29,402 nucleotides of DNA from Candidatus Iainarchaeum sp. (GCA_028713935.1 JAQTNI010000013.1:1-29402); one strand, 5' to 3'. Counted from the first letter of the stretch, positions 1-22,577 are shown. Program-made: numbers and translations. Notes: generated from the letters alone by a model not told the origin.

Positions 1-1235
1 ATCTTGACCAGAATGTTTACAGCACTTTTTCAGCAAGGCTTATTGCAGTGCATAATGCAAAACTTGACTCTGAAAAAATGCCTTTGCTTGTGAATTATTT
101 GATGAAAAACGGCAAAATGACTGAAGCGCCAAAAGGCTATGAATCAAAAACCCTTTTCGATTTTTACAATGAAAACATTGATTTCAATTCTTATTTAATC
201 GGGGACAATTATTCTGCAAAATTCAGGGCGGATTTCGCAACAGAATATAACAATGTTGAAGAAGAAGGAATCGCTGGATTTGGAGAGAAAGCAAAAATTG
301 ATTTCCCAAATGAATTGCCGAATAAATTGGGTTCCGGAAAATACAATACGCAAATTGAGTATAGTTGGGAAACAAGTTCAATGCCTTGGGGAATTGTATT
401 TACAAAAATGGCTGACCTTGTAAAATTGCAAACAGAATTGGGCTCTGCAAAACTTGCAAGCAATGCTTTGCTGAGCATGCCGATTGACGGAAAAATGGCT
501 GCTAACTCCCAGAACAGGGATTATGGAATTTTATTCTCAGAAGCAGATGACTCTTTGAAAATTGCAAAAACAGAAGAAGGCATAGCAATAAATGCGACAG
601 AGGCAGTAGGCGGCACAATAACTCCAAGCCTGCAAACAGAATACTTAAACACAAAAAACGGGGAGATTTTAAAAATAACAAGCAGCGAAATGGTTTTTTC
701 GCCTTCAAGGCCAGTAACAATTTCAATGCCAATAACTCCTCTTGGAGGAAAGGCAAGCGTTTTGTACGGGCTTTTCAAGGCGCAAGAAACCGAAACAATG
801 ATTAATTCCCCTGTGTTCAAATGGGTTGGAACAAAGGATGCAATCACTGACAAAGAAATTCCTGCCGCAAAAGGAAAAGCAATTTGTGACTATATTGACA
901 ATAATTACATTGGATTGGATAATATTGCAATGAGTGCCGGCCAAACATATAAAACAATTGCATTTTTGCCAGCCGGGGAATCCTATTTAATCAAGGGGGC
1001 CTGCGCAAGCCAGTCCGCATCAATTACAATTGGTGACAACAAAATCACAATTGACTCAACATTAACAGAGCCAAAATCATTGGATTTGCCTGCAGCACAA
1101 AATGAGCTTACGGAAAACACTGTGCAGTCTTATCTGGAAAAAATTGGGACAAAACAAGTCTGCGTTATTTTCTCAGCAAACACTGGGGAAATGTCCCTCA
1201 AATGGAACACTGCTGAAATTGCAAAAGCAAACTAA
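1..1235 (+). CDS. 3' portion (about 410 codons) of a large surface/secreted protein, 5'-truncated by the window edge; paralog of the C-terminal module of the 2463-aa protein
   Basis: The reading frame starting at nt 3 is open from the window edge to the stop at 1233-1235. There is no stop upstream of the GTG at 48 that the ORF track used as a start. By eye the translation aligns with aa ~2030-2463 of the giant protein: IDFNSYLIGDNYSAKFRADF vs LNFNAYLIKDSYPEDFRKDF; GSGKYNTQIEYSW vs PAGKYNAVLDIEF; LSMPIDGKMAANSQNRDYG vs YLPFDGKIGLDSENGRQGYG; TVQSYLEKIGTKQVCVIFS vs SVEDILKLVKESKVCVVGS. Confidence 0.75.
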   Translation, partial: LDQNVYSTFSARLIAVHNAKLDSEKMPLLVNYLMKNGKMTEAPKGYESKTLFDFYNENIDFNSYLIGDNYSAKFRADFATEYNNVEEEGIAGFGEKAKIDFPNELPNKLGSGKYNTQIEYSWETSSMPWGIVFTKMADLVKLQTELGSAKLASNALLSMPIDGKMAANSQNRDYGILFSEADDSLKIAKTEEGIAINATEAVGGTITPSLQTEYLNTKNGEILKITSSEMVFSPSRPVTISMPITPLGGKASVLYGLFKAQETETMINSPVFKWVGTKDAITDKEIPAAKGKAICDYIDNNYIGLDNIAMSAGQTYKTIAFLPAGESYLIKGACASQSASITIGDNKITIDSTLTEPKSLDLPAAQNELTENTVQSYLEKIGTKQVCVIFSANTGEMSLKWNTAEIAKAN

Positions 1236-1285
1236 AAGCAGATATTGTAGTTATAATATTGTTGTGGGCTACTGTGTGGTAAACA

Positions 1286-1468
1286 ATGGGGCTGGCTGAA
1301 AAATTTATGCGAGTGTATGCCAATCTGCCACTAAACATAAGAAAAGAAATTGTTTTGGTAATTAATAATGAGCCAATAACTTGGAGTGTAGCATACAGGG
1401 AGATAAGCGGTAAAACTGCCTTGGGAGAAATCATATTAAAAAAACTTGGGGATTTAAAGATAATATAG
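1286..1468 (+). CDS. small hypothetical protein (60 aa)
   Basis: ATG-initiated ORF in the same orientation as its neighbours and tightly spaced with the next two genes. It has no hydrophobic segment. It loosely resembles the next small ORF (an LP/MP motif followed by an EI...GE.I..L pattern). Confidence 0.45.
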   Translation: MGLAEKFMRVYANLPLNIRKEIVLVINNEPITWSVAYREISGKTALGEIILKKLGDLKII

Positions 1469-1479
1469 GGGGTGCCTTT

Positions 1480-1680
1480 TTGTCCGTTACCTCTGAAGAA
1501 ATTAAACAATTGGTTATTGCACGGCTTGAAACCATGCCATCAACAATGAAAGTTTCCTTAGGCGATAGAGGCGTTTTCAATAAAGAAGAGCTCATAGCAG
1601 AGATTCAAAAAAATTCAGACATTGGAGAAAAAATAATAGAAGTGCACCTCAATTATTTGCGCTCTTTTTCCAAACAGTGA
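1480..1680 (+). CDS. small hypothetical protein (66 aa), TTG start
   Basis: The ORF starts at TTG 1480, preceded by a Shine-Dalgarno-like GGGGGTG at 1468-1474. It ends 4 nt before the next gene. The sequence is soluble and charged. Confidence 0.5.
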   Translation: MSVTSEEIKQLVIARLETMPSTMKVSLGDRGVFNKEELIAEIQKNSDIGEKIIEVHLNYLRSFSKQ

Positions 1681-1684
1681 TTCC

Positions 1685-2332
1685 ATGGACTTTTTTATTA
1701 CGCGCCCAGAACATGACGATACTACTTTTTATTTGTCCAATTGGTCAAAAGAGCTAATAGAACTAGCAAAAACAAATGGAATAAACGTATTAGACTTTGA
1801 CAAGGAAAGAGCCACAGCAACAGAAGTTGAAAAAATTTTAAAGAAAAAAAGTCCACGACTCGTAATGTTTAATGGGCACGGTAATAAAGAAACAGTAATG
1901 GGGCATCAGAATGCGATTTTAATAAAACATGGCGTAAACGAGGAATTACTAAAAAACAAAATTGTTTACTGCCGCTCTTGCAGCTCAGCTGCAATACTTG
2001 GAAAAGAAAGCATCTCAAAAGGCACAACCGCTTTTTTGGGTTATACTAATTTGTTTGGGTTTTCTTTTAACCCCCAAAGAAGCGCCACCCCGCTTAAAGA
2101 TGAATTTGCTAAACCTTGTTTAGAAAGCTCGAATCAAATAATAAAAGCATTGCTAAAAGGACACACTGTTCTTGAAGCGTACAAGAGTTCTCAACAAGCC
2201 ACAGATGATTGGATAGAAAAAATGCAAAGAAGTGATGCTCCCCCAGAAGCATCGCACATCCTGCTTTGGTTAGTTTGGAATAAAATTAACCAAAAATTTT
2301 ATGGCGAAGAAAGTGCCAAAATTTGTGAATAA
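1685..2332 (+). CDS. hypothetical protein (215 aa) with a clan-CD cysteine-peptidase-like (gingipain C25 / caspase-like) His-Gly...Cys signature; no signal peptide
   Basis: The motif LVMFNGHGNKETVMG (His65) is followed 31-34 residues later by KIVYCRSCSSAAILG (Cys96/Cys99) and then KGTTAFLGYT. From memory this matches the order and spacing of the gingipain catalytic region (..YTGHGSETAW.. then ..FDVACVNGDF.. then a G-rich strand). Each motif follows a hydrophobic beta-strand-like run. Confidence 0.55.
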   Translation: MDFFITRPEHDDTTFYLSNWSKELIELAKTNGINVLDFDKERATATEVEKILKKKSPRLVMFNGHGNKETVMGHQNAILIKHGVNEELLKNKIVYCRSCSSAAILGKESISKGTTAFLGYTNLFGFSFNPQRSATPLKDEFAKPCLESSNQIIKALLKGHTVLEAYKSSQQATDDWIEKMQRSDAPPEASHILLWLVWNKINQKFYGEESAKICE

Positions 2333-2416
2333 CCAAAAAGAATCTCTGGATATCATCTCAGCCCAGGAAATCCAGACGATTTAGTAATAATGGACTTTTT
2401 AAACAGGCCCAAGCAA

Positions 2417-2626
2417 GGGAAAACTTTTATCAAAAAATTTTCCCACATTGCAAACCTTGGGGTTTGCGACATTGGAAAGCAATGCTTTTCGATGCCACGC
2501 AAACAAAGTTTGCATGGTGCCTCACAAACCAAAAGGTTTGTAAGGGGGCTTTCGACAGTTTCTTTTCCCCAGGCTTCCTTACAAAGCAAAGCTTTGTGAG
2601 GCATCGCAAAACTTTGTTTTGCAATG
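2417..2626. repeat. array of seven short hairpins, six built from related palindromic units with a GCAAAC/ACAAAG-type core and an A/T-rich 3-4 nt loop
   Basis: The hairpins were read directly from the sequence. H0 2417-2444: GGGAAAA/TTTTCCC. H1 2448-2469: TTGCAAACC ttgg GGTTTGCGA. H2 2474-2490: GGAAAGC aat GCTTTTC. H3 2495-2517: CCACGCAAAC aaa GTTTGCATGG. H4 2521-2544: CTCACAAACC aaaa GGTTTGTAAG. H5 2577-2601: CCTTACAAAGC aaa GCTTTGTGAGG. H6 2602-2626: CATCGCAAAAC ttt GTTTTGCAATG. The region lies in a 420-nt spacer that is unusually long for this window. Confidence 0.7.
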
Positions 2627-2751
2627 TTCTTTTAAGAAAAGGCTGGCTTCGAAAGGCTTTTTAATAATAAAGATATAATTGATAGTGCAAATAAGCCATA
2701 TTAATTTTTTAATTGTATAAAATTGCAATGGCAATTCAAGAGATGAGTTGA

Positions 2752-5700
2752 ATGGGAGTTTTTGGCGGCATCAAAAGCATTTATTTTGCCTGCGAAGACA
2801 AATGGTATGCTTTTTGGGATAAGGTTGACGGAAAAATTCCTGTTTACGGGGTTATTGAAAAAATTGACAAGGCAATCCCGAGCTTTGCATTATTCCTGAT
2901 TATTATTGCCGCATTGATAATTTTTGCCTCATGGGGATTTATTGGCGGAATTTTTGTCCAATATAATTTTGGAGTTGCAGTGACTGATTCTGACGGCAAT
3001 CCCCTTCCAAATGTGCAAATTGAAATTTTGCAGGGAGACAAAAGCCTGTTGTCAGAGGCAACAAATGAGACAGGGGAAACAGGCACAATTAGCCTTCCGC
3101 TTGGCGCAACAGTAAAGGTGACCGCCACAAAAGAAGGCTTTTTGGAAGCAACAAGGGAAGCTACAATTGAAAAGCCGAACCAGAAGCTTGAAATTGCATT
3201 GCAGATAATGGAAGAGGAAAAAGAAATAACTGTCCTGATAAAAGACCAGTATAACCAGCCAGTGACAGATGCTGTTGTTATAACTTTTGCCTGCAAAAAT
3301 TCCAGTGTAACGCCTCCGACTGAAAAAACAATTACAAACGGGAGATTAAGCGTAATCGCCCCTGCTGGATGCGGAGGCCTTATTGCAACTCTTGACAGTT
3401 CAAGATATGCAAAAATAAGCTCAAAAGAACTGCAGACAGGCGAACAGACTGTTTTCTTAAAATCAATTGACAATCCGCTTTCCCCTGAAAACCCAAAAAA
3501 CGGCACTCTGAGAGTGCAATTGAAATATAACAATGAATTTGTAAGCGACACTGTTACTGTAAGCCTGTACAAGGACAATGGCGCAGGCGGAATCGGGCCT
3601 CTTGACACGGAAGAAAGCTTAAATGGAATAGCGGAATTCACAAAAGCACCGGGAACATATTTTGCAAAAACAGGCAGCACTTCCCTTTATGGGCAGGCTG
3701 TTTCAGGCATGGCAAGCATAGAATCAGAAAAAACAGCTACAATTGAAATTGCTTTGCATCGCAACATTGCGGGCATTGTAAAACTGCAATTGAAAGACGA
3801 GTCAAGCAAACAGGCAATTGCAGACGCACTTGTTTCCCTGAAAAAAGGAAATGACGAAATAGAATCAAAAAAATCAGATGAAAACGGAATTGCGATTTTT
3901 TCAGTGATGGAGGATGCATCTTACACTGCAATAATTGATTCCGAACAATACTGCCTGAAAGTGCTTGGCGGCCTGAGAATCAACAATGCAGTGCAGGCAA
4001 TTGAACTAAAAAAATATGCAAGTGATTGCGGGGCAGGCCTGAAAGCCAAAGTCCTTGACCAGGATGGCAAGGCAATAAAAGGCGCAATTGTCGGGCTTTA
4101 CAGCGAAGAAGGTTATAGCACTGGTTTTGCAACAAGAATAAGCGATTTAAACGGCATAGCGGAATTCACAAGAGTTTCATCAGGGGTGTACAAGGCATTT
4201 GCAACAAAAGGCAGTTTTTCAGGCTGGAGCGATGCGGAAAATTTCCAGCAGAGAATAGCGGACCAGACAATGCTGATTGTTACAATGATTGTCCCTGATG
4301 GGACACTGAAAATAAACGTAATGGACAAGGACGGACTGCCATTGCCAGGCGCAAATGTAACCTTTATTGATGCAATCACAAACGAAACAATTGGCGGAGG
4401 CTCAAGGCCGGTTGATGACGCAAATGGCACAACAATGGAATTCCTTTCAAGGGCAGACAAAAAAGTCTTTTTTACAATAACAAAGCCTGGCTATGCGGAT
4501 TTCACTTCAATTGTTTATCCGATAATCCCAAACACAACACAGGAAATAAGCGCGGTAATGGAAAAAGAAATAATCAGCGGGGAAATCAAAATAGAATTGC
4601 AAGGCCTGTACAAGGAAGGCCAGCTTGCAACAGTGCTCATGCCAGGGGAAACATACACTGCAAAACTGAAAATAAAAATACCAAAAAACAGGCAATACGC
4701 AAAAATAGGCCTGCATGTAAGAACAGGAACAAACAATCTCATGGAATCAGACCCTCTTGTGATAAAAGAGCTGAATGTTCCAGGCAGGGCAAGCATAATA
4801 AAGGCAACAGCCTTCAGGCCTGACAACAGCTATGAAGAGGATTCACAGACAATTACAACTGATGATGCAAAATGGGCAAATGCGGAATGGACAGAATTTC
4901 ATTCAGGAATAATCGAGGCAGAGGCAACAATAAAAGTCAAGGAAACAGCAAAGGATTCCGATGAACTTGTTTTCTGGTACAGGGCATATGCTGTTGATGC
5001 ATCGGGAAAATACATCAGGGACAAGGAAGACAAACAGCTCGGCTTTTCCGAAAACACACCGAAAAAGCAGGCATTGTACGCCGAAGCCTACCAGGCAGTT
5101 TATAATGTGGGAACAGAAACATTGTGCGATGGCACATTCTGCTTTTCCGCAAGCATACTTGACATTGAAGCAGGCCTCTCAGAATCAGCGCAAACAAATT
5201 ATACTGCAAAATTATACAAGGATTACCTTTTGACATTTGCAATACTGAATGCATCACAGGCAGGATATTTTTATGGTTCGGAACTGCGGATAATAAACGA
5301 GGACAATGGCCTTGAGCTTGGAAGCTATTCAATAAACAGCGCGCAAAACCAGAACATTTCAGGAACAGGCGCTGATTCGAAAACAGACTGGATTGCAGTT
5401 GGAGACTTTTTGCCAAACACTTCAATAAAGGGAAACATTGGGTTTGTTCCGCAAAAAAACAGCATTTCCACAATAAAATTCCAAATCAGGTCTGCACAAA
5501 GAATTGTTTTTGAAAAAATAATTACAATTAACGTTGAGGCAAAAAAAGAATTTGCTGTTACAATTGCGCCTGAATTCCTTCCAACAGGAGTTGAGAACAG
5601 GATTACTGTGACTGTCCTTGACAAGGAAACAAGCAGGGAAGTTTCCGATGCAACAGTAAAAATTGAAAACAAGTTCAGGGATGTGCTTGCAACAGCAAAA

Positions 5701-8700
5701 ACAAATTCAAAAGGAATTGCAGTCCTGACCCTTCCTGCACAGCAGCCGGGAGAAACATTGCTGCTTGTTGTTGAAAAAGCTGAATACAAGCCCTTTGAAA
5801 AAGAAATTGGCGTTGATGACAAGGTAGCTGCATTGCTCCCTGAAAAAATTGGAATAGGGTTGAACGCAAAAACCCTTACAGAGGGAGAAGCTGAATTCAG
5901 CATTGAAAACAAGTCAGGAATGGAACTTGTTGTTTCAAACCTTGAATTAAAAGGCAGGCTCCTTGGCCTGGTTGATGCGCAGGAAGCAAAAAACTGGCTT
6001 GACACTTTCCTCGGGGAAACAATTTCCGCAAAACAGGCAAAAAACTTTTCCCTAAAAGCAAGGCTCACAGAAGCGGGAAAGCAAGTAACTGAAACAAAAA
6101 CAATTGAAGCCACTTTAAGCGCAACAGTAACAGCCCTCGGAGGAGAATGGACTTACGAAATTCCTGTTGTAATAACAATCGGCCTTGGAGGAGAGGTTGA
6201 TGACCCAAGCTGCTTCAAAATAACAAAGCACGAATGGAAATCAATAACAGAAGGCCAGACAATAGAAACAGAATTTGAAGTTCAAAACAATTGTGCAGTT
6301 TCAGGAAACCCTGTTGCATTGAACGACATTGAAGCGCAAATAAACTGGCAAAGCAATGAAACAGGGACATTTGCAATTTCATCGCAGGAAACACAGGCAG
6401 AGCTTGTTTCAGGATACTTCAAAAGAATACTCGGCAGGCTGGAAGCCGGAGAAAAAATAAACGTGACGCTCAGCTTTGCGCCGAGCTCATCTCGGGGAGG
6501 GGAAGCAAAAGCGGAAATTATTTTCAAGGCAAGCAACCCAAGCGACAAGGCAGTGCAGGAACTGACAGACAAATTGTCGGTACAGATAAAAACAGTCAAC
6601 CTTCTGAACTGCATTGGCTTTGACAAGGAAATAATCACAATAAAACCTGAAGGAACTGGCTCTTTCACAATAGAAACAAATGGCTGCGGAGAAACCACTG
6701 ATTTCAGGCTTGTATCAGACCTGGAATTAAGCAGAAAAACATTTTCCCTGAAAGACAAGGACAAGATAACAATTGATGTGATTGCACAGGGAGCAATGGC
6801 AGGCCAGTATGTAGTAAGCGTTTTTGCAAAATCAAGCATTGACACAGAAGAAAGATTCATCAAAAACATAAGGGCAAGGGTGCAGTCAAAAGGCTGCATT
6901 GAACTCAGCAAGTTTGAATTTGATGTTTACAAAAATCCTGAAGACCAGTTCAGCGGATATGACACTGCAATTCTGACAAACCATTGTTATGACAAACTGG
7001 AAAACATAGAAGTAACCTGGAGCGAAAAAGACATGGGAAAAGCACAGGACGAAGGAATGCAGTTTGCAATGATAATGGGAATGACAAACATGATGGGCAA
7101 AATGGGAAGCCCAACTCAGATATTCAGCAAGGCAAGCGAAGGGGAAAGCTCTGACTGGTGCATGCTTGACGGAGGCACAGTGCTATACAAAAAAAGCGGA
7201 AGCTATTATGACAGCAGCGGAAAACAATATGTTGCTCCCCCGGAAGGAATGTGCCATCCATGGGGCAAAACAAAAATTTATGATTGCGCAACTGGAAAAC
7301 AAATAAGCGAAGAATATGGCTATATAAGCGGGACAAGCCTGCTTGGGCAGAATGGCCAGGCAAGAACAGACCTCCTATCAAAAGACGGCAAGCTGTGCAA
7401 AAATGTATCACCGGCAAATTCAGCAGAAACATCAAAACCTGCTGGAACTGGAGACATTGCTTTGCCTGTTACTGGAATGGCAACAACTCCTGCAGCAGAC
7501 ACTACAGGGAACACAGGAACTACTGGGGCAACAGCAGACACTGGAGGAAACACTGGCAGCTCTGGAACAGGCGGGACTTATGCAGGAAGGCCAGCTGACA
7601 AGCCAAGCACAATTATTGAGCCGCCAAGCAAAACCAGCAAAGATAGTTCAAGCAATGGCCTTATGGATAACGCGTCTTTGCCATTGCTGCTTGGAATGAG
7701 CCAGATGGGAGGCGGAGAACCAAACTTTTTGGCAAGCGCAATCCAGGGTTATATGATGGGAACACAAATGGCTTATTCAAAGCAGGGCGAAGGGCAATTT
7801 TCATACGAATCTGTGCAGAAAGACCTTGTTTACAGCAATTCAAAATTATTATTGCCTGGAGCAAAAATAGAAAAAGGCAAGTATTCCCAGGAAGAAAGCT
7901 CTGACATTGTTGTAAAAGAAGTCGGGGACAAGAGCACAGACCAGAGAGAAGACAATCCTGCACTGAATATTGAAAAAAGAAAAATTGCCTTTATCAACGA
8001 AGCAGGGGTAGTGCAGTCAGACCCTTCAAAGCCAATTTTCAGGGTATTGCAGGTAAGAGGAGAAAGAGTCGAGTATGAAACACAGTATGATTATAAGGAA
8101 GAAACAAAGCCAACCACAATAAAAGTGAAAAGCCGCACTCCCTATGTTGAAAATTTCAGGGTACAATTCAATTCTTTCAAGCCAACACTTACTCCAATAG
8201 AAGCAGGCCCTGTTCCAAACTGCCAGCTTGGGGCAATGTCAGGAGTTACAGGCAAAGACGCTGTTCCAAAAGTATTGCTGCAATGGGACTGGGCAAGCAT
8301 AAATGAAAATTCTTGTGATGCGGAAAACCCAAACTATGTTTATTGCGATGCAACGCAATTCAGCATTGAAATACTGAAAAAGCTTGAAAAAGTAAAAAAC
8401 TTTGTTGAACAATTCAGGCCATTTGACTGCCCAACAAGCGAAACAGCCGCAGCTGTTTCAGAACAGGCATTGTCAGAATTGGGAAAAGACTTTGCGATTA
8501 CAAAAATGCAGGCACAGTCTGCGGGAACAGATGCGAACATTGTTGTGACAATAGAAAGCAATAACCAGGAAGAGGCAAGCGGAAACATTACAATTACAAT
8601 AAAAGACTCGAATGGCCCCAAGGCTTCAAAAAAAATTGCCTTTTCAGTTCTAAGCAGGGAAATTGTTTCAGCAACATTCACTGGCCTGCCAGCGGGAAAT

Positions 8701-10143
8701 TATGATGCAGAAGCCTCAATTGAAATGCAATCCTGCGCAGGCTGCGAAAATTCCGATGCAACAAATGATTCAATAAAGGCAAAACTCAACATGACTTCTT
8801 CAGGAGTCGGAAAATGCACTCCTTACAGCACAAAACGGCTCAAGGACTTTTTGGAAGCATCGGAATTCAATGGGCATGCTGCCTGGACACAGGCGCAAAA
8901 AGAAGAAGTCCTCAATGCGCTGAATTTCAATGCCTACCTAATAAAAGACTCTTATCCCGAAGATTTCAGAAAAGACTTCCACGAATACTGCATGCACAAG
9001 TCCTTTTTTGACTGCCCAGAAACATACACAAAAAAACAGGGCTGGGGAGAATTCTTCAGCAGCAAAGACAATTTCAAATTTGATTATGGCAGTTCAGAAA
9101 ACTCGCCAGTCCCTGCAGGAAAATACAATGCAGTCCTTGACATAGAATTCAACAATTCCAATTGGAATTTTTTTGATGAAGAGGGACTTGGCGCAACAGT
9201 AAAAATAGAGCTTACACAGCTTGACACTCCAAGGCCTGACAATGCATTTTATTACCTGCCATTTGACGGAAAAATAGGCCTGGATTCTGAAAACGGACGG
9301 CAGGGCTATGGAGTTAATTACAAAAGCGGCTCTGAAATAAAAATAAACAATTCAGACGTGCAGCTTGTCACCACAACAGCAATTCCCTCAAGCACACCTG
9401 TTTCAGGGGCATGGGTTACAGGAGAAGAAACAAAAACCTTCAAGACACTGAATGCAGACAAGAGAGGAATAATAATGGACATAAAGGCAACAGACGAAAG
9501 CACAAAAATCAACCTGAGCCCAAGTTATGCAACCCCAGTAATAATGAATGTTTCCTATTCCACAGGAGAAAATGCCTATGGATTTTATTCGGTTGAAATT
9601 GATAACTCCCCCCAAAGCACTCTTTCAAGAATGATGCCTTGGAACGGCATAGGAGTGAACTGCAAAGACTTCAAAGATGCAGCAATGACAGATGCATGGC
9701 AGAACAACTGGGATTTGCACGGCGGAATTCCAGGAAACATAAAATGCGCAACAGGCACTGAAATTACTGATTACGGAGTCGAATGGTGCTCGCCTTCCAG
9801 AAAAGGCAATGTTTACCTCTGGGGAATAATTTTCACTCCCCAGGGAAGCAACAGCATAATGAAACGCAAAACTTATTCGGATTCAATGCAGTTAATAGGA
9901 ACAGACAGCAGCGGCACACAAATAGGCCTGAACGGAGTTCCAGGGCAGACATTCAACAGTTACGGAGTATCAGGAATAACCTCTGTTGAAGACATCTTAA
10001 AACTTGTAAAAGAAAGCAAAGTATGCGTAGTAGGCTCAAGCAACAGGGTAAGCAGCCAGTTCTTCTGGAACCCAAAACCAGTCCTTGATGCGCTTGCAGA
10101 CAAGAAAAAAGCATTTGAAAAAGAATGCATTCCGGCACAATAA
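2752..10143 (+). CDS. giant membrane-anchored surface protein (2463 aa) with an N-terminal single TM anchor and multiple prealbumin/carboxypeptidase-regulatory-like beta-sandwich repeats
   Basis: This is a single uninterrupted 7.4-kb ORF. One hydrophobic helix lies at aa ~44-68 (PSFALFLIIIAALIIFASWGFIGGIF). Six consecutive ~80-90 aa repeats at aa ~72-605 follow the pattern V.V.D..G.P...A.V.......T..NG.A.F....G.Y....K.G (for example VAVTDSDGNPLPNVQIEIL, LKAKVLDQDGKAIKGAIVGLY, LKINVMDKDGLPLPGANVTFI). A seventh repeat lies at aa ~934-1020. Three Cys-pair modules occupy aa ~1150-1420 and a Thr/Gly-rich linker occupies aa ~1556-1636. There is no C-terminal anchor. Confidence 0.9.
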   Translation: MGVFGGIKSIYFACEDKWYAFWDKVDGKIPVYGVIEKIDKAIPSFALFLIIIAALIIFASWGFIGGIFVQYNFGVAVTDSDGNPLPNVQIEILQGDKSLLSEATNETGETGTISLPLGATVKVTATKEGFLEATREATIEKPNQKLEIALQIMEEEKEITVLIKDQYNQPVTDAVVITFACKNSSVTPPTEKTITNGRLSVIAPAGCGGLIATLDSSRYAKISSKELQTGEQTVFLKSIDNPLSPENPKNGTLRVQLKYNNEFVSDTVTVSLYKDNGAGGIGPLDTEESLNGIAEFTKAPGTYFAKTGSTSLYGQAVSGMASIESEKTATIEIALHRNIAGIVKLQLKDESSKQAIADALVSLKKGNDEIESKKSDENGIAIFSVMEDASYTAIIDSEQYCLKVLGGLRINNAVQAIELKKYASDCGAGLKAKVLDQDGKAIKGAIVGLYSEEGYSTGFATRISDLNGIAEFTRVSSGVYKAFATKGSFSGWSDAENFQQRIADQTMLIVTMIVPDGTLKINVMDKDGLPLPGANVTFIDAITNETIGGGSRPVDDANGTTMEFLSRADKKVFFTITKPGYADFTSIVYPIIPNTTQEISAVMEKEIISGEIKIELQGLYKEGQLATVLMPGETYTAKLKIKIPKNRQYAKIGLHVRTGTNNLMESDPLVIKELNVPGRASIIKATAFRPDNSYEEDSQTITTDDAKWANAEWTEFHSGIIEAEATIKVKETAKDSDELVFWYRAYAVDASGKYIRDKEDKQLGFSENTPKKQALYAEAYQAVYNVGTETLCDGTFCFSASILDIEAGLSESAQTNYTAKLYKDYLLTFAILNASQAGYFYGSELRIINEDNGLELGSYSINSAQNQNISGTGADSKTDWIAVGDFLPNTSIKGNIGFVPQKNSISTIKFQIRSAQRIVFEKIITINVEAKKEFAVTIAPEFLPTGVENRITVTVLDKETSREVSDATVKIENKFRDVLATAKTNSKGIAVLTLPAQQPGETLLLVVEKAEYKPFEKEIGVDDKVAALLPEKIGIGLNAKTLTEGEAEFSIENKSGMELVVSNLELKGRLLGLVDAQEAKNWLDTFLGETISAKQAKNFSLKARLTEAGKQVTETKTIEATLSATVTALGGEWTYEIPVVITIGLGGEVDDPSCFKITKHEWKSITEGQTIETEFEVQNNCAVSGNPVALNDIEAQINWQSNETGTFAISSQETQAELVSGYFKRILGRLEAGEKINVTLSFAPSSSRGGEAKAEIIFKASNPSDKAVQELTDKLSVQIKTVNLLNCIGFDKEIITIKPEGTGSFTIETNGCGETTDFRLVSDLELSRKTFSLKDKDKITIDVIAQGAMAGQYVVSVFAKSSIDTEERFIKNIRARVQSKGCIELSKFEFDVYKNPEDQFSGYDTAILTNHCYDKLENIEVTWSEKDMGKAQDEGMQFAMIMGMTNMMGKMGSPTQIFSKASEGESSDWCMLDGGTVLYKKSGSYYDSSGKQYVAPPEGMCHPWGKTKIYDCATGKQISEEYGYISGTSLLGQNGQARTDLLSKDGKLCKNVSPANSAETSKPAGTGDIALPVTGMATTPAADTTGNTGTTGATADTGGNTGSSGTGGTYAGRPADKPSTIIEPPSKTSKDSSSNGLMDNASLPLLLGMSQMGGGEPNFLASAIQGYMMGTQMAYSKQGEGQFSYESVQKDLVYSNSKLLLPGAKIEKGKYSQEESSDIVVKEVGDKSTDQREDNPALNIEKRKIAFINEAGVVQSDPSKPIFRVLQVRGERVEYETQYDYKEETKPTTIKVKSRTPYVENFRVQFNSFKPTLTPIEAGPVPNCQLGAMSGVTGKDAVPKVLLQWDWASINENSCDAENPNYVYCDATQFSIEILKKLEKVKNFVEQFRPFDCPTSETAAAVSEQALSELGKDFAITKMQAQSAGTDANIVVTIESNNQEEASGNITITIKDSNGPKASKKIAFSVLSREIVSATFTGLPAGNYDAEASIEMQSCAGCENSDATNDSIKAKLNMTSSGVGKCTPYSTKRLKDFLEASEFNGHAAWTQAQKEEVLNALNFNAYLIKDSYPEDFRKDFHEYCMHKSFFDCPETYTKKQGWGEFFSSKDNFKFDYGSSENSPVPAGKYNAVLDIEFNNSNWNFFDEEGLGATVKIELTQLDTPRPDNAFYYLPFDGKIGLDSENGRQGYGVNYKSGSEIKINNSDVQLVTTTAIPSSTPVSGAWVTGEETKTFKTLNADKRGIIMDIKATDESTKINLSPSYATPVIMNVSYSTGENAYGFYSVEIDNSPQSTLSRMMPWNGIGVNCKDFKDAAMTDAWQNNWDLHGGIPGNIKCATGTEITDYGVEWCSPSRKGNVYLWGIIFTPQGSNSIMKRKTYSDSMQLIGTDSSGTQIGLNGVPGQTFNSYGVSGITSVEDILKLVKESKVCVVGSSNRVSSQFFWNPKPVLDALADKKKAFEKECIPAQ

Positions 10144-10243: not shown

Positions 10244-10795
10244 ATGTTGGAACAGTATACAATTGTAAAAGCAATTCAGCATGTCATCTCTTGCCCAGGC
10301 AAAAGCTTTTCAATACGGGGCCTGGCTGCAAGCATCAAAATAAGCCCAGGCTCTGCAAGAGAAGCTCTCGGCTTCATGGAAAAAAAAGGAATCGTAACAC
10401 TAAAAATTATTGGCAAAACCCACCAGTACCGAGCAGATTTAGAAAATCCGCTGTGCCGCCAGTGGAAAGTGCTTTTCAACCTTGACTTTATTGCAGATTC
10501 CAAACTTGTGGATGGCCTGCTCGAAAAAATTCCAAGCATCCAAACAATTCTTTTGTACGGCAGTTTTGCAAAAGGGACAAATGATGAAAAAAGCGATTTG
10601 GACCTGCTAGTTATTGCACATAAAACATCTAAAATGGATTTTGGCTTTCTGAACAAAACAAGAAAAGAAATAAATATTTCTTTGCTCTCTTTGAATGAAT
10701 GGAAAAAAAAAGCCCTCCAAGACAGGGTTTTTTATGAAAACGTAATTTATGATTCTGTTGTTTTGCATGGGGCTAACAGACCAGTGGTTTTATGA
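10244..10795 (+). CDS. nucleotidyltransferase (MNT-type, pol-beta superfamily) with an N-terminal winged-helix domain
   Basis: The signature LLYGSFAKGTNDEKSDLDLLVI matches the minimal nucleotidyltransferase motif (GS..G....D.D). The N-terminal ~70 aa look like a wHTH (SIRGLAASIKISPGSAREALGFMEKKGIV). Its stop overlaps the next start in an ATGA (10792-10795). Confidence 0.8.
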   Translation: MLEQYTIVKAIQHVISCPGKSFSIRGLAASIKISPGSAREALGFMEKKGIVTLKIIGKTHQYRADLENPLCRQWKVLFNLDFIADSKLVDGLLEKIPSIQTILLYGSFAKGTNDEKSDLDLLVIAHKTSKMDFGFLNKTRKEINISLLSLNEWKKKALQDRVFYENVIYDSVVLHGANRPVVL

Positions 10796-11217
10796 ACATT
10801 GAAGATTGCCTGAATGAGGGTCTGCTTGCCAAGGCAAAGCCGGATTTGCAAAAAGCAAAAGCTTCAATTGAAATGGCAGAGCACAAGCTTGAACTTGCAG
10901 AAAAAGAATTTGAACACGGGATTTTTGAAAATGCCATTACAAGCGCTTATGCTTCAATGTTTCACTCTGCAAGGGCCCTCTTGTTCAAGGATGGCTATAA
11001 AGAAAGAAGCCATTTTGCGGTTTATGTTTATCTGAATGAAAAGTATGCCTCGAAAATTGAAAGAAAATTCCTCAGCGAACTTAATTCATTGCGGCTGCAA
11101 AGGCATGATTTGATGTACGGCATAGAAAAAAGCGCTGAAATACAAGAAGTTGATGCAGAATCCGCAATACAAATGGCACGAGGCTTTCTTGAGGCAATAA
11201 GAAAAATCACAAATTAA
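10792..11217 (+). CDS. HEPN domain protein (partner of the preceding nucleotidyltransferase)
   Basis: The 141-aa protein looks all-helical. It shows the typical archaeal HEPN pattern (AITSAYASMFHSARALL ... ELNSLRLQRHDLMYG, that is L..LR..R.D..Y). It is translationally coupled to the MNT gene. Confidence 0.8.
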   Translation: MNIEDCLNEGLLAKAKPDLQKAKASIEMAEHKLELAEKEFEHGIFENAITSAYASMFHSARALLFKDGYKERSHFAVYVYLNEKYASKIERKFLSELNSLRLQRHDLMYGIEKSAEIQEVDAESAIQMARGFLEAIRKITN

Positions 11218-11236
11218 TTAATTTTTGGTTTTTGCA

Positions 11237-12115
11237 ATGGTTTTCACACAGCTTTTTGTCAACGGTCTGATTGCCGGTGCAATATATGCGCTTGTTGCAG
11301 CAGGCTTCTCACTGATTTATTCCACTACAAAATTCGTGCACTTTGCGCATGGAGCAACAGTTGCAGCAAGCGCATACTTCTTGTACTTTCTTTTTTCAAT
11401 GCTCGAAATAAACTTCTGGATTGCAGTTCCGCTTGCAATTACTTTCGGGGCATTTTTCGGCCTGCTCTGCAACATACTTGTTTATGAAAAATTTGTTGAC
11501 AAAAAAGCAAGCAATGTGATTTTATTAATAGCAAGTTTTGGATTACTGATTCTCTTTGAATCAATTATTCTTCTCTTTTTCGGAGCAGATGTAAAAACAA
11601 TCGGATTCATAAAAATTTCAAAAGGAATTGAAATTGCAGGAGCAATAATTACTCCACTGCAAATCTTTATTGTAATAAGCTCTTTTGTTCTGCTTGCAGT
11701 ACTCTGGTTTTTCATGAAAAAAACCAAAATCGGAAAAGCAATGAGGGCAGTTTCAGACAACAAGACAATTGCAGAAACCCTGGGCATTAATTCAAAAAAA
11801 ATTTTTAACTGGTCCTTTTTAATAGGCTCGGCAATTGCTGGCATTGCGGGAATATTTGTTGCTTTGGAACAAAACCTTGAACCCACAATGGGAACAAATT
11901 TAATCATCAAAGGATTTACAGGGGCAGTAATCGGCGGGATTGGAAGCGTGCCAGGCGCAATCTTGGGAAGCTTTTTGCTTGGCTTTGCAGAAAACTTTGG
12001 AATATGGTTTCTCCCCTCCGGATACAAAGACGCAATAGCGTTTGTAATCTTATTGGTTTTCTTATTATTCAGGCCAACAGGAATACTGGGAATAAAAAGA
12101 GAGGTGCAAAAATGA
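11237..12115 (+). CDS. livH: branched-chain amino acid type ABC transporter permease, LivH family
   Basis: LivH-like N-terminus LFVNGLIAGAIYALVAAGFSLIYSTTKFVHFAHGA, with multiple TM segments. The ATG at 11237 is preferred over the TTG at 11225. The stop overlaps the next start in an ATGA at 12112-12115. Confidence 0.9.
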   Translation: MVFTQLFVNGLIAGAIYALVAAGFSLIYSTTKFVHFAHGATVAASAYFLYFLFSMLEINFWIAVPLAITFGAFFGLLCNILVYEKFVDKKASNVILLIASFGLLILFESIILLFFGADVKTIGFIKISKGIEIAGAIITPLQIFIVISSFVLLAVLWFFMKKTKIGKAMRAVSDNKTIAETLGINSKKIFNWSFLIGSAIAGIAGIFVALEQNLEPTMGTNLIIKGFTGAVIGGIGSVPGAILGSFLLGFAENFGIWFLPSGYKDAIAFVILLVFLLFRPTGILGIKREVQK

Positions 12116-13233
12116 ACAACAAACTAATTTTGGGAATTACAATTGCAGCAACAATTGCAATAATTTTCTTTGCAGGCTGCACCCAACAACAACCTGAAAA
12201 CGGGAAAGAAATCAAAATTGGTGCTTTGGTTCCTTTGACTGGAAACTATTCTGTTTTGGGCAATAGAATAAAGAACGGAATGGAACTTGCAAAACAAGAC
12301 CTTTTGGTTGAAAACCCAAATAAGCAGATTGAACTTGTTTTTGAAGATGCCTGCCAGCCGAAAGATGCAGTTACTGCTATACAAAAAATGATTGAAGTTG
12401 ACAAAATAAATCTTATTGGAGGCTCTTTCTGCCTTGTAGGCCTTGTTCCAATAATCCCCATTACTGAAGAAAAAAAAATGATTGTGTTCAACACAGCTGC
12501 AAATCCGGACAGCGTATTAAATCACCCTTATGTTTTCTCAACAAACAAGTCAATCAAATCAGATGCAGCGGGAATGGCAAATTTTGCATTGCAAAAATTG
12601 AATGCAAAAACAGCAGTCACTGTTTTTTACAACACGCCTTTAGGGCAGGATTTTAACAAGCATTTGACAGAGACTTTCATTGCAGGAAATGGAACTGTGC
12701 TTTCAACACAAATGGTTGAATTGAACGCAGTTGATTTTAGAACAGAATTAACAAAAATAAAAGAACAAAAACCAGACGTAATTTTTATTATACAATTGTC
12801 AAATTCTTTGGGCTTATTTTTGAAGCAAGCAAAAGAACTGGGAATTGAAGCAAAAATCATGAGCCATTCAGAAGCAGAAGACCCGAATGTCCTGGCAACA
12901 GCTGCTGAAGCAGCAGAAGGATTTATTATTTCCTCTTCAGAACCAAAAATAAAAACAAAAGAAATACTGGATTTCAAAGAAAAATATTCAAAAGCATTTG
13001 GAGCAGAACCAGACATTTTAGCAGCAACTGCATACGATTCCCTCAAACTGCAAGTAATTGCTTTTGAAAAATGCAATGGCTCATCAGATTGCATGGCCGA
13101 AGAATTTCACAAAACAAAAAACTATGCAGGAGCAAGCGGAAACATCACAATCAACGCAAACGGCTCATCAGACAAACCAACAAACTTCAAAATAGTAAAA
13201 AATGGCAAATTTGTTCCATACGAGGGAAACTGA
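12112..13233 (+). CDS. ABC transporter substrate-binding protein, Leu/Ile/Val-binding (type 1 PBP, Peripla_BP_6-like) family, lipobox; paralog 1
   Basis: Signal/lipobox IIFFAGCTQQ. Family motifs are IKIGALVPLTGN, EDACQPKDAV, GGSFCLVG, DFRTELTKIKEQKPDVIFI, LKQAKELGIEA, AAEGFI, GASGNITINANGS and IVKNGKFVPYE. The start is taken at the ATG at 12112; the ORF-track start at 12004 lies inside livH. Confidence 0.9.
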   Translation: MNNKLILGITIAATIAIIFFAGCTQQQPENGKEIKIGALVPLTGNYSVLGNRIKNGMELAKQDLLVENPNKQIELVFEDACQPKDAVTAIQKMIEVDKINLIGGSFCLVGLVPIIPITEEKKMIVFNTAANPDSVLNHPYVFSTNKSIKSDAAGMANFALQKLNAKTAVTVFYNTPLGQDFNKHLTETFIAGNGTVLSTQMVELNAVDFRTELTKIKEQKPDVIFIIQLSNSLGLFLKQAKELGIEAKIMSHSEAEDPNVLATAAEAAEGFIISSSEPKIKTKEILDFKEKYSKAFGAEPDILAATAYDSLKLQVIAFEKCNGSSDCMAEEFHKTKNYAGASGNITINANGSSDKPTNFKIVKNGKFVPYEGN

Positions 13234-14346
13234 ATGAGAACAAAAAATTTTTTGATAATTGTAATAATTGCATTGGCTTTGTTGTTTGCTGGTTGTACAG
13301 AGCAACCAAAAGAAACAAAGATTAAGATTGGTTTTATGGCGCCTCTTACGGGTTCTTTTGCTGATTGGGGCAGAAGCATTCAGGAAGGCATGCAATTGGC
13401 CCTTGAAGATACAAACCACAAGTTTAATGTTGATTATCAGGACGATGCTTGCGACCCAAAACAAGGCGTTACTATTATCAATAAGTTTCTTGGCACAGGC
13501 GAAATTAATTTGATTATTGGGCCCGGTTGCATTGAAAGTTTAAAAGCAATAGCTCCGATTGCAGAGCAAAATAATATTTTGCTTTTTTCTACCGGCCTTC
13601 TCGACAATGAAGTTTTTGAAAAACACAAAAACATAATCAACTTGGCTTCACAAATCTCTACAGAAGGAAGGTATTTAGCCAGTTATTTGGACTCCCAGAA
13701 AGTTAAAAGAGTTGCAATAGTTTACGGAACAAATCCCTTTGGAGTAGAACACAGCAAAACATTTCCAATATTTCTCAAAGACTACAATATAGAAGTTACT
13801 TCAATAGAAGGTTCTGCGCTGGATACAACTGACTTTAAGACAATTATTTTAAAAGTAATGAATACCAATCCAGAAGTAATTTTTATTCATCAGGGAGAAA
13901 AGCAAATTGGACTATTTGTTAAACAGCTAAGAGAACTCGGATACAGCACACAAGTTTATGGTTACTATGGAACTGAAGCGCAATCAGTAATAGAAACTGG
14001 GGGAGAAGCACTTGAAGGAATGCTTTACACTTACCCCGTAAACAGCGCAGAAAATTCTCCACAAAAAAAGGAATTTGAAAGAAGATATTCTGAAAAATTC
14101 GGCAAAGACAAGGTACCATCAGCAACATCTTTTTTTGTATATGACGGAATGATGCTTGTTGATAAAGCCATGGCTGTGTGCCAATCTCTCGACACGGAAT
14201 GCATAAAAGGATTTTTTGAAGGGAGAGACTACATAGGAATATCAGGAAATATGAAATTTGAAAAAAATGGCAGCATTACCCGTCCATTCGGCATAAAAAA
14301 AATTGAAAACGGAAAATTTGTATGGGTAACCAAAAAAATTGAATGA
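13234..14346 (+). CDS. ABC transporter substrate-binding protein, Liv-type family, lipobox; paralog 2
   Basis: Lipobox LLFAGCTEQP. Motifs are IKIGFMAPLTGS, QDDACDPKQGV, GPGCIESL, DFKTIILKVMNTNPEVIFI, VKQLRELGY, GISGNMKFEKNGS and IENGKFVWV. The ATG directly abuts the previous stop (13233/13234). Confidence 0.9.
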   Translation: MRTKNFLIIVIIALALLFAGCTEQPKETKIKIGFMAPLTGSFADWGRSIQEGMQLALEDTNHKFNVDYQDDACDPKQGVTIINKFLGTGEINLIIGPGCIESLKAIAPIAEQNNILLFSTGLLDNEVFEKHKNIINLASQISTEGRYLASYLDSQKVKRVAIVYGTNPFGVEHSKTFPIFLKDYNIEVTSIEGSALDTTDFKTIILKVMNTNPEVIFIHQGEKQIGLFVKQLRELGYSTQVYGYYGTEAQSVIETGGEALEGMLYTYPVNSAENSPQKKEFERRYSEKFGKDKVPSATSFFVYDGMMLVDKAMAVCQSLDTECIKGFFEGRDYIGISGNMKFEKNGSITRPFGIKKIENGKFVWVTKKIE

Positions 14347-15233
14347 AGAAGGCCACAGAAATGATTGAAGCTTATTTAATTCATTTGGCAATTTTGATTT
14401 GCATTTACCTTATTCTTGCGATTTCTTTGCAGATTGCAGTTGGTTTTTCAGGATTGCTGAATTTGGGGCACATTGCATTTTATGCTGTAGGGGCATATGC
14501 TTCAGCACTATTGGCGCTTGCTGGTTTTCCATTTTGGGTTTGCCTGCTTGCAGCAGGTTTTTTTGCAATGCTCTCAGGCTTTATAATCGCCTTGCCAACA
14601 AACAAACTTAAGGGAGATTATTTGGCCTTGGCAACAATGGGCTTCAGCTTTGTTGTTTATGCAATTGCACTCAATTGGACTGATTTAACAAGAGGCCCTT
14701 TAGGCCTGCCTGGAATTCCAAGGTCCGAAATTTTTGGATTTGTTTTTTCAGACAATCTTGCTTTTTTGATTCTTGCTCTTGCAATTGCTTTGATTACTTT
14801 TTTGGCATTAAAGAGAATCACTTCTTCACAGTTTGGAAAAGTGCTTGAAGCAACAAGGGACGACGAATTGGCTACAAGAGTTTTGGGAAAAAATTCTTTC
14901 AAAATGAAAGCCTTTGCATTAGGCATAAGTGCTTTTTTTGCTGGAATCGCAGGCAGTTTGTATGCAAGCTACATTACTTTTATTGACCCAAGCTCTTTCA
15001 CTATTCTTCAAATAATCCCAGTGCTTGCAATAGTAATTATTGGCGGGCTTGCTTCTTTCAGGGGAACAATAATTGCAACAATTATCATTGTTCTGCTCCC
15101 TGAGCCATTAAGATTTATCGGTTTTCCTTCAAGCATTGTTGGCCCAGCAAGGCAGATAATTTATGCATTATTGCTATTGCTGATTTTGCTGTTCAAGCCG
15201 AAAGGATTGTTTGGAAAAGTGGAATTGGAATAA
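14343..15233 (+). CDS. livM: branched-chain amino acid type ABC transporter permease, LivM family
   Basis: LivM-like motif LLNLGHIAFYAVGAYASALLAL, with multiple TM segments. It overlaps paralog 2 in an ATGA (14343-14346). Confidence 0.9.
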   Translation: MKKATEMIEAYLIHLAILICIYLILAISLQIAVGFSGLLNLGHIAFYAVGAYASALLALAGFPFWVCLLAAGFFAMLSGFIIALPTNKLKGDYLALATMGFSFVVYAIALNWTDLTRGPLGLPGIPRSEIFGFVFSDNLAFLILALAIALITFLALKRITSSQFGKVLEATRDDELATRVLGKNSFKMKAFALGISAFFAGIAGSLYASYITFIDPSSFTILQIIPVLAIVIIGGLASFRGTIIATIIIVLLPEPLRFIGFPSSIVGPARQIIYALLLLLILLFKPKGLFGKVELE

Positions 15234-15608
15234 TCACTTTATTTTAATTTGAATTTCCGCGTATTTTGGCAGTGCTATTGTTGCTTGTTTTGATTTTTTT
15301 GTTTCAACCAAGCCGAGTTTTTTCAAGTGTGCAATATCCCTGCTGACTGCTTCCTGATGCCTTCCGAGGCTTTTTGCTGTCTGGGAAACAGACTTTGGGT
15401 TTTTCTCGTCCTGGTTTCCAATCAAATAGCGCAGGACATTAATTCTTGCGGGGGATAAAAGTTCAGCCAGTTGCGCATAATTGTCCAAATAAAGCATATT
15501 TTTAGATTGTTTTATCTGGTCAAGCGGTTTTCCAGAGAACAGCTCGTCCAGATCCCTATCCATTTTTCTGCCAATCACAATAGTTAAAATATTTTCTTTT
15601 TTAGCCAT
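15234..15608 (-). CDS. winged-helix (MarR/ArsR-like) DNA-binding protein, 124 aa
   Basis: The segment LSPARINVLRYLIGNQDEKNPKSVSQTAKSLGRHQEAVSRDIAHLKKLGLVE is a wHTH followed by a short beta tail. The start is taken at the ATG at 15608 (MAKKENIL) because the longer ORF-track start at 15695 would overlap the upstream gene. Its stop codon directly abuts the livM stop. Confidence 0.7.
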   Translation of the reverse strand: MAKKENILTIVIGRKMDRDLDELFSGKPLDQIKQSKNMLYLDNYAQLAELLSPARINVLRYLIGNQDEKNPKSVSQTAKSLGRHQEAVSRDIAHLKKLGLVETKKSKQATIALPKYAEIQIKIK

Positions 15609-15640
15609 AAAAACCACAATAAAGTTGTATAACATAAATG

Positions 15641-15976
15641 TTATATGCTTATGTTTTGTCTTTTTGAAAGAAACCATTGCTTGTACTTTTGCCAATTAGT
15701 TATAATCTCTCTTTTAAATTCCTTGGCTGTTTCAGAAGAAATTTCACTGTTAAGGTTTTCCCCCGCATGCTTTGCCCTTTGATAATAGCGATGGGCATGC
15801 ACAACACCATGCGCACTATCAAACTTGATGACTTCGTGTTCTTTCCCGCCCAAGAGGCAAATTTGCGCTACGCAAAAGCAAATAACTTTTTTTGTTTCGG
15901 CATCAAAGTCAATCGTGACCAAAACATAATCCTTCGAACTCAGCCACTCTTTCTTTTTAAAGTGTTCCATAACCAT
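15641..15976 (-). CDS. small hypothetical protein (about 110 aa) with the His-rich motif FDSAHGVVHAHRYY; co-oriented partner of the wHTH gene
   Basis: The ORF sits 32 nt upstream of the wHTH gene on the same strand. The start is ambiguous (ATG at 15976 or 15970; the ORF track extends to 16000). The H-rich motif and the pairing with a small wHTH protein recall archaeal two-gene toxin/antitoxin-like modules (TumE/DUF6516-type). That assignment is from memory and weak. Confidence 0.5.
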   Translation of the reverse strand: MVMEHFKKKEWLSSKDYVLVTIDFDAETKKVICFCVAQICLLGGKEHEVIKFDSAHGVVHAHRYYQRAKHAGENLNSEISSETAKEFKREIITNWQKYKQWFLSKRQNISI

Positions 15977-16089
15977 AAAAAATCTGCAAAACAAAAGCAT
16001 TATAAAAAACGCTTTCAGTAAGGCAATTGCCGAAAAGAAGAAAACAAACTATTTTAAAACAAAAAGAGCAATAACTTAATTGAAAACAA

Positions 16090-18334: not shown

Positions 18335-18336
18335 GT

Positions 18337-19317: not shown

Positions 19318-19322
19318 AAAAA

Positions 19323-19355: not shown

Positions 19356-19424
19356 AAAAAATATTTAAAAAATCTTATTAATGCCAAAAGCAGAGGCTTG
19401 TGTATTGTTCGGGGAGAAAAAACT

Positions 19425-22537: not shown

Positions 22538-22577
22538 CTGAAAATGCTTTTTAACCTGTTTTTGCAATATTAATTGC

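Follow-up and report, generated by a model that had tools for sequence, protein, structure and literature searches.

Why a small archaeal genome should carry giant genes side by side whose products end in the same domain, and what that domain might do for the cell, is the question raised by a 29,402-nucleotide (nt) stretch of DNA from Candidatus Iainarchaeum sp. (GCA_028713935.1, JAQTNI010000013.1:1-29402), referred to below as the window. The window is an entire contig of a metagenome-assembled genome at NCBI, which leaves no leftward extension of the first giant gene, and its source lineage, Candidatus Iainarchaeota (formerly Diapherotrites), comprises uncultivated archaea within the DPANN/Nanobdellati. 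Comparison with public genomes and proteins revealed that the window holds part of a conserved two- or three-gene set of giants, found mainly in Iainarchaeota, whose products have in common a C-terminal head (the module) of ~650 amino acids (aa) without named or solved relative. Judged by sequence, the products appear to be giant surface proteins, a known kind, carrying a terminal domain family that appears to be new and unnamed; full-text literature searches turned up no description of the module family or of the locus. The two giants of the window, gene A and gene B, are laid out as follows.

nt 3..1235, plus strand: 3' end of giant gene A (410 codons; NCBI PHD95_02960, partial), with a divergent A-type module core; from translation, BLASTP and a profile hidden Markov model (HMM)
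nt 2752..10143, plus strand: giant gene B, 2463 aa (NCBI MDD5163146.1); from its open reading frame (ORF) and its orthologs at loci L019 and L009
nt 2752..2976, plus strand: N-terminal segment and single transmembrane helix of giant B; from hydropathy and a conserved motif
nt 2977..7059, plus strand: stalk of giant B, a predicted array of beta-sandwich domains, aa 76-1436; from Pfam
nt 7060..8190, plus strand: linker of giant B, aa 1437-1813; from composition and ortholog identity
nt 8191..10140, plus strand: C-terminal module of giant B, ~650 aa, aa 1814-2463; from alignments, HMM and AlphaFold2
nt 8191-8451, plus strand: N-terminal subdomain of the module, carrying the YCDATQFSIEILKK helix; from alignments
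nt 8452-8793, plus strand: immunoglobulin (Ig)-like/CARDB-like insert of the module; from Foldseek
nt 8803-10140, plus strand: core of the module; from motifs and AlphaFold2

The frame of gene A is open from nt 3 and closes with a stop codon at 1233-1235, and the extents given in a preliminary description of the window (nt 3-1235 for the first, 2463 aa for the second) were reproduced, the second ORF running from nt 2752 to nt 10143. That description had also proposed that the ends of A and B are colinear and that two members of one giant-protein family adjoin here, and the direct comparison it called for proved significant, in that BLASTP aligned aa 59-409 of ORF A with aa 2057-2447 of giant B at 24% identity (47.8 bits, E=2e-9 in a single comparison). 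Because this pairwise score is modest, a test profile was built from 20 other module sequences, with the partial ORF A excluded. With the resulting HMM, ORF A obtained 83.6 bits (E=6e-25), the match covering positions 231-616 of the 633 in the profile, whereas the top score among 1000 shuffles of ORF A against the same HMM was 5.6 bits. Giant B, whose own module is among the profile members, reached 906.9 bits; by HMM coordinates its module spans aa 1822-2462 of 2463, and that of ORF A stops two residues short of the stop codon. The motif blocks listed earlier for the two proteins recur in the same order in the family alignment, where they stand out as conserved family motifs. Together with the orthology of gene A described below, these scores bear out the adjacency of two relatives.

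The extent of the shared region had to be revised. Its C-terminal position stands, and its size, put at ~430 aa in the preliminary description, does not: when homologs from public proteins were aligned, the conserved unit came to ~650 aa, starting near aa 1814 of giant B. The left contig end falls almost exactly at the YCDATQFS helix of the A copy, and therefore only ~430 aa looked shared. Within the module, the N-terminal subdomain carries the pattern G.TG..P.V..W.W..CD..N..YCDATQFSI.LLKK, and the Ig-like insert measures ~115 aa in the B copy of the window. The extra segment between N-terminal subdomain and core, ~165 profile positions long, is missing in some members (P0012, P0013, P0021 and P0022). 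The core of ~430 aa bears the motifs F.AYLI.D.Y..DFRKDF, FYYLPFDG..G.DS.NGRQGYG, SPSYATPVIM, W.G.G..C.DF, VCV and F.WNPK. The module of giant B contains 14 Cys, and in all family members examined the module occupies the extreme C-terminus of its protein.

The module matched nothing in Pfam, NCBIfam or PDB sequences, in agreement with the earlier failure to assign it to any recognised family. An AlphaFold2 model computed from a 21-sequence alignment was confident for the whole module (predicted local distance difference test, pLDDT, 87.1; predicted template modelling score, pTM, 0.77) and for the core alone (pLDDT 82.7, pTM 0.75). Foldseek comparison of the whole module with PDB gave matches confined to the Ig-like insert (CARDB-like and other beta-sandwich domains), with query template modelling scores of ~0.12. 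For the core alone, nothing in PDB was found at E<=1e-3, the top match having E=0.03 and probability 0.08, and nothing meaningful was found for the module among the viral structures of BFVD. The non-significant core matches were mostly jelly-roll binding domains, namely CBM35, CBM40, the Epa adhesin A domain and the receptor-binding domain of botulinum neurotoxin, at E 0.3-0.6 and probability <0.1. As modelled, the core provisionally lacks a significant structural relative among PDB and BFVD entries. Across 100 modules of the B type and of the C type introduced below, the positions conserved in >=85% of sequences are dominated by C, W, F, Y, G and P, with a few D, R and N besides, and no conserved His, Ser or Lys set, nor any other catalytic-type residue set, was found among them. 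A-type modules have lost many of these otherwise conserved positions, yet the gene is kept.

A HMMER scan of 1.84 billion cluster representatives returned 848 family members at E<=1e-3 (counted as clusters at 50% identity), 530 of them at E<=1e-30; most are 2200-3250 aa long with the module at the very end. The giants, typically of 2300-3000 aa, follow one plan: an N-terminal segment that is short and conserved, a single transmembrane helix, beta-sandwich domains of Ig-like, prealbumin-like or MG-like type over ~1350 aa, a linker of variable, low-complexity sequence and the Cys-rich module. The survey of related genomes suggested by the preliminary description was carried out on one genome per GTDB species, with a 10-sequence alignment as query, and located 123 coding stretches in 65 loci. 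By record title these are mainly Candidatus Iainarchaeum (32, including Ca. I. andersonii), followed by 'archaeon' (27), Micrarchaeota (2) and others (4). Four loci (L018, L020, L022 and L057) lie in AB_1215 bins of one study that are labelled Chloroflexi, Thaumarchaeota and Falkowbacteria, and are probably mis-binned contigs. A metagenome scan with the partial ORF A found no relative.

The layout of the locus was defined by running the module profile over all ORFs of the surveyed loci. In the usual arrangement, three giants lie in tandem (A-B-C), with the module at the end of each, and four or five small polytopic membrane genes (sm1-sm5) come next, of which the window holds four.

Gene A, upstream: divergent module, domain E-values 1e-6 to 1e-39
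Gene B, middle: ~2250-3000 aa, ortholog of the giant in the window
Gene C, downstream: 2300-2700 aa
nt 27879..29307 of the window, plus strand: sm1-sm4, polytopic membrane genes (129, 110, 88 and ~107 aa); from ORFs and synteny

Tandem A-B-C sets were found at L011-L014, L016, L018, L023, L024, L026, L031-L034, L041, L042, L046, L050 and L066, and throughout the lineage the genes keep their order and number, neither expanded nor shuffled. The best match of ORF A is the gene directly upstream of B elsewhere (L009, 38% identity, E=8e-68), followed by ~15 more A genes at E=1e-17 to 1e-29, and its best B or C match lies at only ~E=1e-10; ORF A is therefore an ortholog of gene A. The A orthologs are long, with 2581 aa by the gene call at L006 and no fewer than 1467 aa at L009, whose ORF extends past the end of the locus. 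As the preliminary description had proposed, the upstream gene is thus of the giant kind and not a short one. The B and C paralogs share 28% identity over ~1500 aa of stalk and 33% over the head, and A-type genes can likewise be aligned with B upstream of the module, up to the limits of the loci. The earlier picture of a conserved distal tip on divergent stalks is not supported by these alignments; by sequence, A, B and C look like old paralogs that arose by whole-gene duplication.

The nearest relatives of the window are L019, whose B is 83% identical over its full length, and L009 (63-65%). At either locus A is immediately followed by B (gaps of ~205 nt and 145 nt, respectively) and B by sm1-sm5, and no C is present. 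The window holds the end of A and the whole of B, with C absent as in these two loci. It fits the family layout in that A and B are adjacent bar a 1.5-kb insertion and sm1-sm4 follow past an insertion of ~17.7 kb; the fifth gene, sm5, would lie past the contig end. Homologs of the sm genes stand directly downstream of the giants in L002, L006, L009, L012, L019 and L023, and in 35 of the 52 informative loci, those with enough downstream sequence, the last giant has at least two sm families within 3 kb. No Pfam or NCBIfam family was found for sm1-sm4, bar one sub-threshold PMT_2 match (E=2e-4) on the last ORF.

How, then, is a protein of this size likely to be placed on the cell? Kyte-Doolittle hydropathy revealed a sole strongly hydrophobic segment in giant B, at aa ~45-70 (maximum 2.81 at aa 33-75), in line with the single N-terminal transmembrane segment previously reported. 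It is preceded by an N-terminal segment of ~45 aa with the motif EDKWY...DK.D...P....ID...PSF, which recurs in the giants of L001, L002, L006 and L007, paralogs and orthologs alike, and which we infer to be cytoplasmic. The stalk matches CarboxypepD_reg (9e-23), an SpaA/prealbumin-like domain (5e-8), bMG3 (1.7e-9), DUF7382 (7e-9) and Big_1; gathering thresholds are passed by PF13620 (80.9 bits against 32.3) and PF17802 (33.5 against 23.1), and PF02369 falls just under its cut-off (34.8 against 34.9). By these matches, the stalk belongs to the generic Ig-like/CarboxypepD_reg repeat surface-protein class; it has no PDB sequence match, and its 12 Cys form six closely spaced pairs. The NCBI annotation of giant B is 'carboxypeptidase-like regulatory domain-containing protein'. 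The linker (G 14%, S 12%, T 9.5%) contains amphipathic segments rich in Met and Gly as well as a low-complexity run of Gly, Ser and Thr, and within it aa 1500-1620 form the only hypervariable part of giant B, with identity of 52% to L019 and 30% to L009. Over the rest of the protein identity is flat, at 75-93% to L019 and 50-80% to L009, and no hypervariability is seen in the head. The protein ends in a hydrophilic C-terminus (...KKKAFEKECIPAQ). A type-II orientation seems likely for giant B, in which the N-terminus would stay in the cell while stalk and module are exposed; the single N-terminal transmembrane segment, the paired Cys of the stalk, the 14 Cys of the module and the signal-peptide-like start of split module-bearing proteins argue for the outside position of the latter two, and the shared module is probably extracellular and distal from the membrane.

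A substrate of an archaeosortase (PGF-CTERM) or of a sortase (LPXTG) was considered for giant B and rejected on the hydrophilic C-terminus, the lack of a PGF motif and the mid-protein position of the lone LPVTG. The latter lies at nt 7462-7476 of the window (aa 1571-1575), inside the hypervariable linker, where the surrounding 'LP.TGMATTP' forms an island conserved with L019 (LPITG) and, loosely, with L009 (LPSVGM); the 'LP..GM' island is conserved in the window, L019 and L009 only. The motif was considered as a possible sortase-type processing site. Of 78 giants, 7 carry an LPxTG within the linker or close to it, more than the ~1 expected by a rough composition estimate.

In other genomes, gene B is split between stalk and module (L001, L006, L007/L008, L028, L047-L049 and L065), giving an N-terminally anchored stalk of 1500-1840 aa and a separate module-bearing protein of 800-1200 aa. 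The sizes are 1704+964 aa at L001, 1840+983 aa at L006 and 1502+587+808 aa at L007, where the third protein, of 587 aa, is C-terminally anchored and encoded between the two halves of B. The module-bearing half opens with a signal-peptide-like segment in P0014, P0016, P0018, P0013 and P0022, as judged by eye. Since the fission of B into an anchored N-terminal part and a putatively secreted C-terminal part is recurrent, the halves can presumably hold together non-covalently.

What the module does is best approached through these patterns of conservation. We propose that A, B and C are co-produced as subunits of one conserved cell-envelope structure, with the shared module as the head by which they assemble or dock. 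The paralogous chains would use it to associate mutually or to bind a common invariant partner, possibly the sm proteins, and the module would be neither an enzyme nor a tip that binds ligands and evolves fast. The present genome retains only A and B of the system, like the two nearest relatives, and two insertions interrupt it. The proposal draws on the whole-gene paralogy, the even identity along B, the structural type of the conserved residues and the fixed order with the sm genes, and we hold it tentatively, at a little short of an even chance. The uniform conservation and the constant gene order suit a structural or assembly role somewhat better than a host-contact or effector role; the observations agree less well with a rapidly evolving tip for host recognition, and poorly with an enzyme.

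Several points weigh against this proposal. We infer the assembly role of the head solely from the conservation pattern and the gene order, and the same data also fit binding of a conserved external ligand. The clade of the window has lost C, which rules out a strict need for three chains in the complex. In giant B, sequons for N-glycosylation show no enrichment (24 observed, 20.5 expected), and the topology was derived from simple hydropathy and inspection by eye. The fold comparison spanned PDB and BFVD, and any claim of a new fold, or of the lack of a structural relative, is therefore provisional. In addition, we know of no member of Iainarchaeota in cultivation.

A host-contact adhesin, as suggested in the preliminary description, is the alternative that stands best. 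The giants would then tether an episymbiotic DPANN cell over a long reach, and the module would be a distal tip that binds a molecule on the host surface. The organism does belong to the DPANN, in which other giant surface proteins such as SPEARE have been proposed as host-interaction factors (PMC6642349). The module is probably extracellular and sits at the far end from the transmembrane anchor, and the Foldseek matches of the core are mostly to jelly-roll binding domains, although these are weak and not significant. On the other hand, the head has no hypervariable region among orthologs, the genes are constant in number and order, residues of structural type predominate among those conserved best, and the lifestyle of Iainarchaeota is not established. 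Host contact of this kind is unlikely on our estimate; adhesion via a conserved ligand, which partly overlaps with the envelope-structure proposal, is nevertheless a serious rival at that same level.

The shared domain might instead be an anchor that fastens the protein back to the envelope, onto sm1-5, so that the variable parts are displayed. Such an arrangement would be analogous to that of Apilactobacillus kunkeei, in which the domain that five tandem giants share at the C-terminus is thought to be a cell-wall anchor rather than a binding tip (PMC12863079). The split C-terminal parts begin with seemingly cleavable signal peptides and would need some means of staying on the cell, and the sm genes are tightly syntenic with the giants. 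Unsplit giants, however, are already anchored by an N-terminal transmembrane helix, and neither Pfam nor Foldseek revealed similarity of the module to SH3b or to a known anchoring domain, which makes this explanation improbable. Less probable again is an enzymatic or toxic effector head that degrades or perforates the envelope of a neighbour. Effector-like domains do occur on other DPANN giants (SPEARE protease and toxin-like regions; PMC6642349), and the module is large with a fold without known relative; yet the 100 modules share no conserved catalytic-type set, no enzyme family matched by sequence or fold, and the A-type copies persist despite their losses, so that we regard an effector head as very improbable. 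Finally, chance similarity, assembly artefact and mobile or viral cargo in place of a cellular system, for which one could cite two insertions that break the locus and defence-like genes nearby, are effectively refuted by a profile score far above that of the shuffles, the same arrangement in dozens of independent assemblies, the housekeeping genes PolD, Cdc6 and SepF adjoining the L007 copy, and the lack of any meaningful match in the viral structure library.

Comparison with known systems places the giants among familiar types without identifying them with any. Bacterial giant Ig-repeat adhesins (Embp, RTX-type) combine a long array of Ig-like extenders with a distinct terminal region. Giant B resembles them in its stalk of generic CarboxypepD_reg, Big_1 and SpaA-type domains, whereas secretion and anchoring differ, and the giants described here have an unnamed terminal family and come in a constant set, two or three paralogs accompanied by small membrane proteins. 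One stalk domain matches bMG3 (E=1.7e-9) and is shared in this respect with bacterial alpha-2-macroglobulins; membership of that family was rejected, there being no CxEQ motif in the 2463 aa, no thioester or other alpha-2-macroglobulin Pfam domain, and a differing architecture. The S-layers of Sulfolobales (SlaA/SlaB) and of Staphylothermus (tetrabrachion) use membrane-anchored stalks of beta-sandwich or coiled-coil type with a distal assembly domain, and partners are encoded in neighbouring genes. The giants are alike in having a long anchored stalk with a distal domain and putative partner genes alongside, and unlike in their N-terminal anchor and in giving no sequence or fold match to these systems. 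An S-layer protein of the TIGR01564/TIGR01567 type was rejected, no NCBIfam match at E<=0.1 being found for A or B. The ~101-kDa S-layer protein of the DPANN archaeon Ca. Micrarchaeum harzensis, which is of the TIGR01564/7 type (10.1101/2021.04.28.441871), belongs to a different family from the giants.

A further likeness in general form is to SPEARE of Nanohaloarchaeota, which are also giant, mostly extracytoplasmic, membrane-anchored DPANN proteins taking up a few percent of the genome, and which are proposed to mediate cell-cell interaction (PMC6642349). SPEARE proteins are usually anchored near the C-terminus and have a conserved intracellular part, whereas the conserved end of the Iainarchaeota giants is probably extracellular; membership of SPEARE was rejected, since none of its serine-protease, laminin-G/adhesion and type III restriction-enzyme domains appeared in the Pfam scan. 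Giant1-5 of A. kunkeei are consecutive genes for very large extracellular paralogs that occupy several percent of a small genome (PMC12863079). They are bacterial, carry a signal peptide without transmembrane anchor, have alpha-helical or beta-solenoid extenders, and share a C-terminal domain of SH3b-like type (DUF5776) to which cell-wall binding is ascribed (PMC12863079), whereas DUF5776 is absent among the Pfam matches, and SH3b-like folds among the Foldseek matches, of the giant proteins described here.

Two Diapherotrites metagenome-assembled genomes are ~1.05-1.09 Mb in size (PMC8561730), and two or three genes of ~7.4 kb plus five small membrane genes, whose order is preserved in most of the relatives sampled, would amount to ~2% of such a genome, which makes the set a strong candidate for the main surface structure of Iainarchaeota cells. 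A further and rather doubtful possibility is that the A/B/(C) giants and the five small membrane proteins form an undescribed envelope or attachment organelle specific to Iainarchaeota, replacing or overlying a conventional S-layer, on which ~2% of a ~1-Mb genome would be spent and in which the core of the head would be a new fold. For further work, the module profile marks contigs of the Iainarchaeota lineage, the module offers a large, confidently modelled domain without known structural relative, and the A/B/C and sm set provides a defined target for studies of the envelope; the question of host contact is not answered by the finding itself.

The rest of the window lies outside the giant-protein system, apart from the region that precedes gene B.

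nt 1286..2332, plus strand: cassette of three small ORFs (60, 66 and 215 aa), a lineage-specific insertion between A and B; from ORF listing
nt 1286-1468, 1480-1680 and 1685-2332, plus strand: the three cassette ORFs individually
nt 2640..2751, plus strand: conserved proximal upstream region of gene B, a putative promoter region; from alignment to L019
nt 10244..27702: inserted block of ~17.7 kb, outside the giant-protein system; from Pfam, PADLOC and junction alignment

Both the cassette and the ~17.7-kb block are missing from L019 and L009, and two insertions have therefore occurred in the window. The three intervening ORFs noted previously are real, the same genes being called on independent Logan contigs (L003-L005) and at least two of them being annotated in NCBI; the cassette is a lineage-specific insertion outside the conserved locus. 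The Logan contigs carrying the 215-aa protein are short and start at window nt 40, and an exact look-up of giant B returned no match. Sequencing runs from samples that contain this organism include SRR22315506, SRR22315508 and SRR22315509. The cassette proteins have no match in Pfam, NCBIfam, PADLOC, PHROGs or PDB sequences. The His/Cys spacing of the 215-aa protein ('FNGHG ... YCRSC') may resemble that of clan CD (caspase-like) peptidases. A spacer of 419 nt separates the third cassette ORF from gene B, whose proximal upstream region aligns with that of B in L019; the sequence farther upstream does not. In this spacer, at 2575-2628, lies a palindrome-rich element of ~50 nt (GCAAAGCTTTGTGAGGCATCGCAAAACTTTGTTTTGC), which recurs downstream of B in L019 at 7660-7710. 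It is single-copy in the window, its 15-nt core (GAGGCATCGCAAAAC) is present in none of the other 72 loci; a terminator, a regulatory hairpin and a small mobile element are all conceivable. Rfam detected no RNA family, and ARAGORN no tRNA, in the window.

According to the junction alignment, the ~17.7-kb block begins right after the stop codon of B, and it ends before the small membrane genes. It encodes an NTase/HEPN pair, LivH/LivM permeases, LivG/LivF ATPases, AsnC- and TrmB-type regulators, an AAA_14/DUF4143 ATPase and eight to nine paralogs of LivK-type binding proteins. PADLOC assigned the NTase/HEPN pair as candidate PDC-M05A/B and the AAA_14/DUF4143 ATPase as PDC-S01 (E=3e-115). The expansion of amino-acid binding proteins within the block seems unusual for a DPANN archaeon with a small genome.

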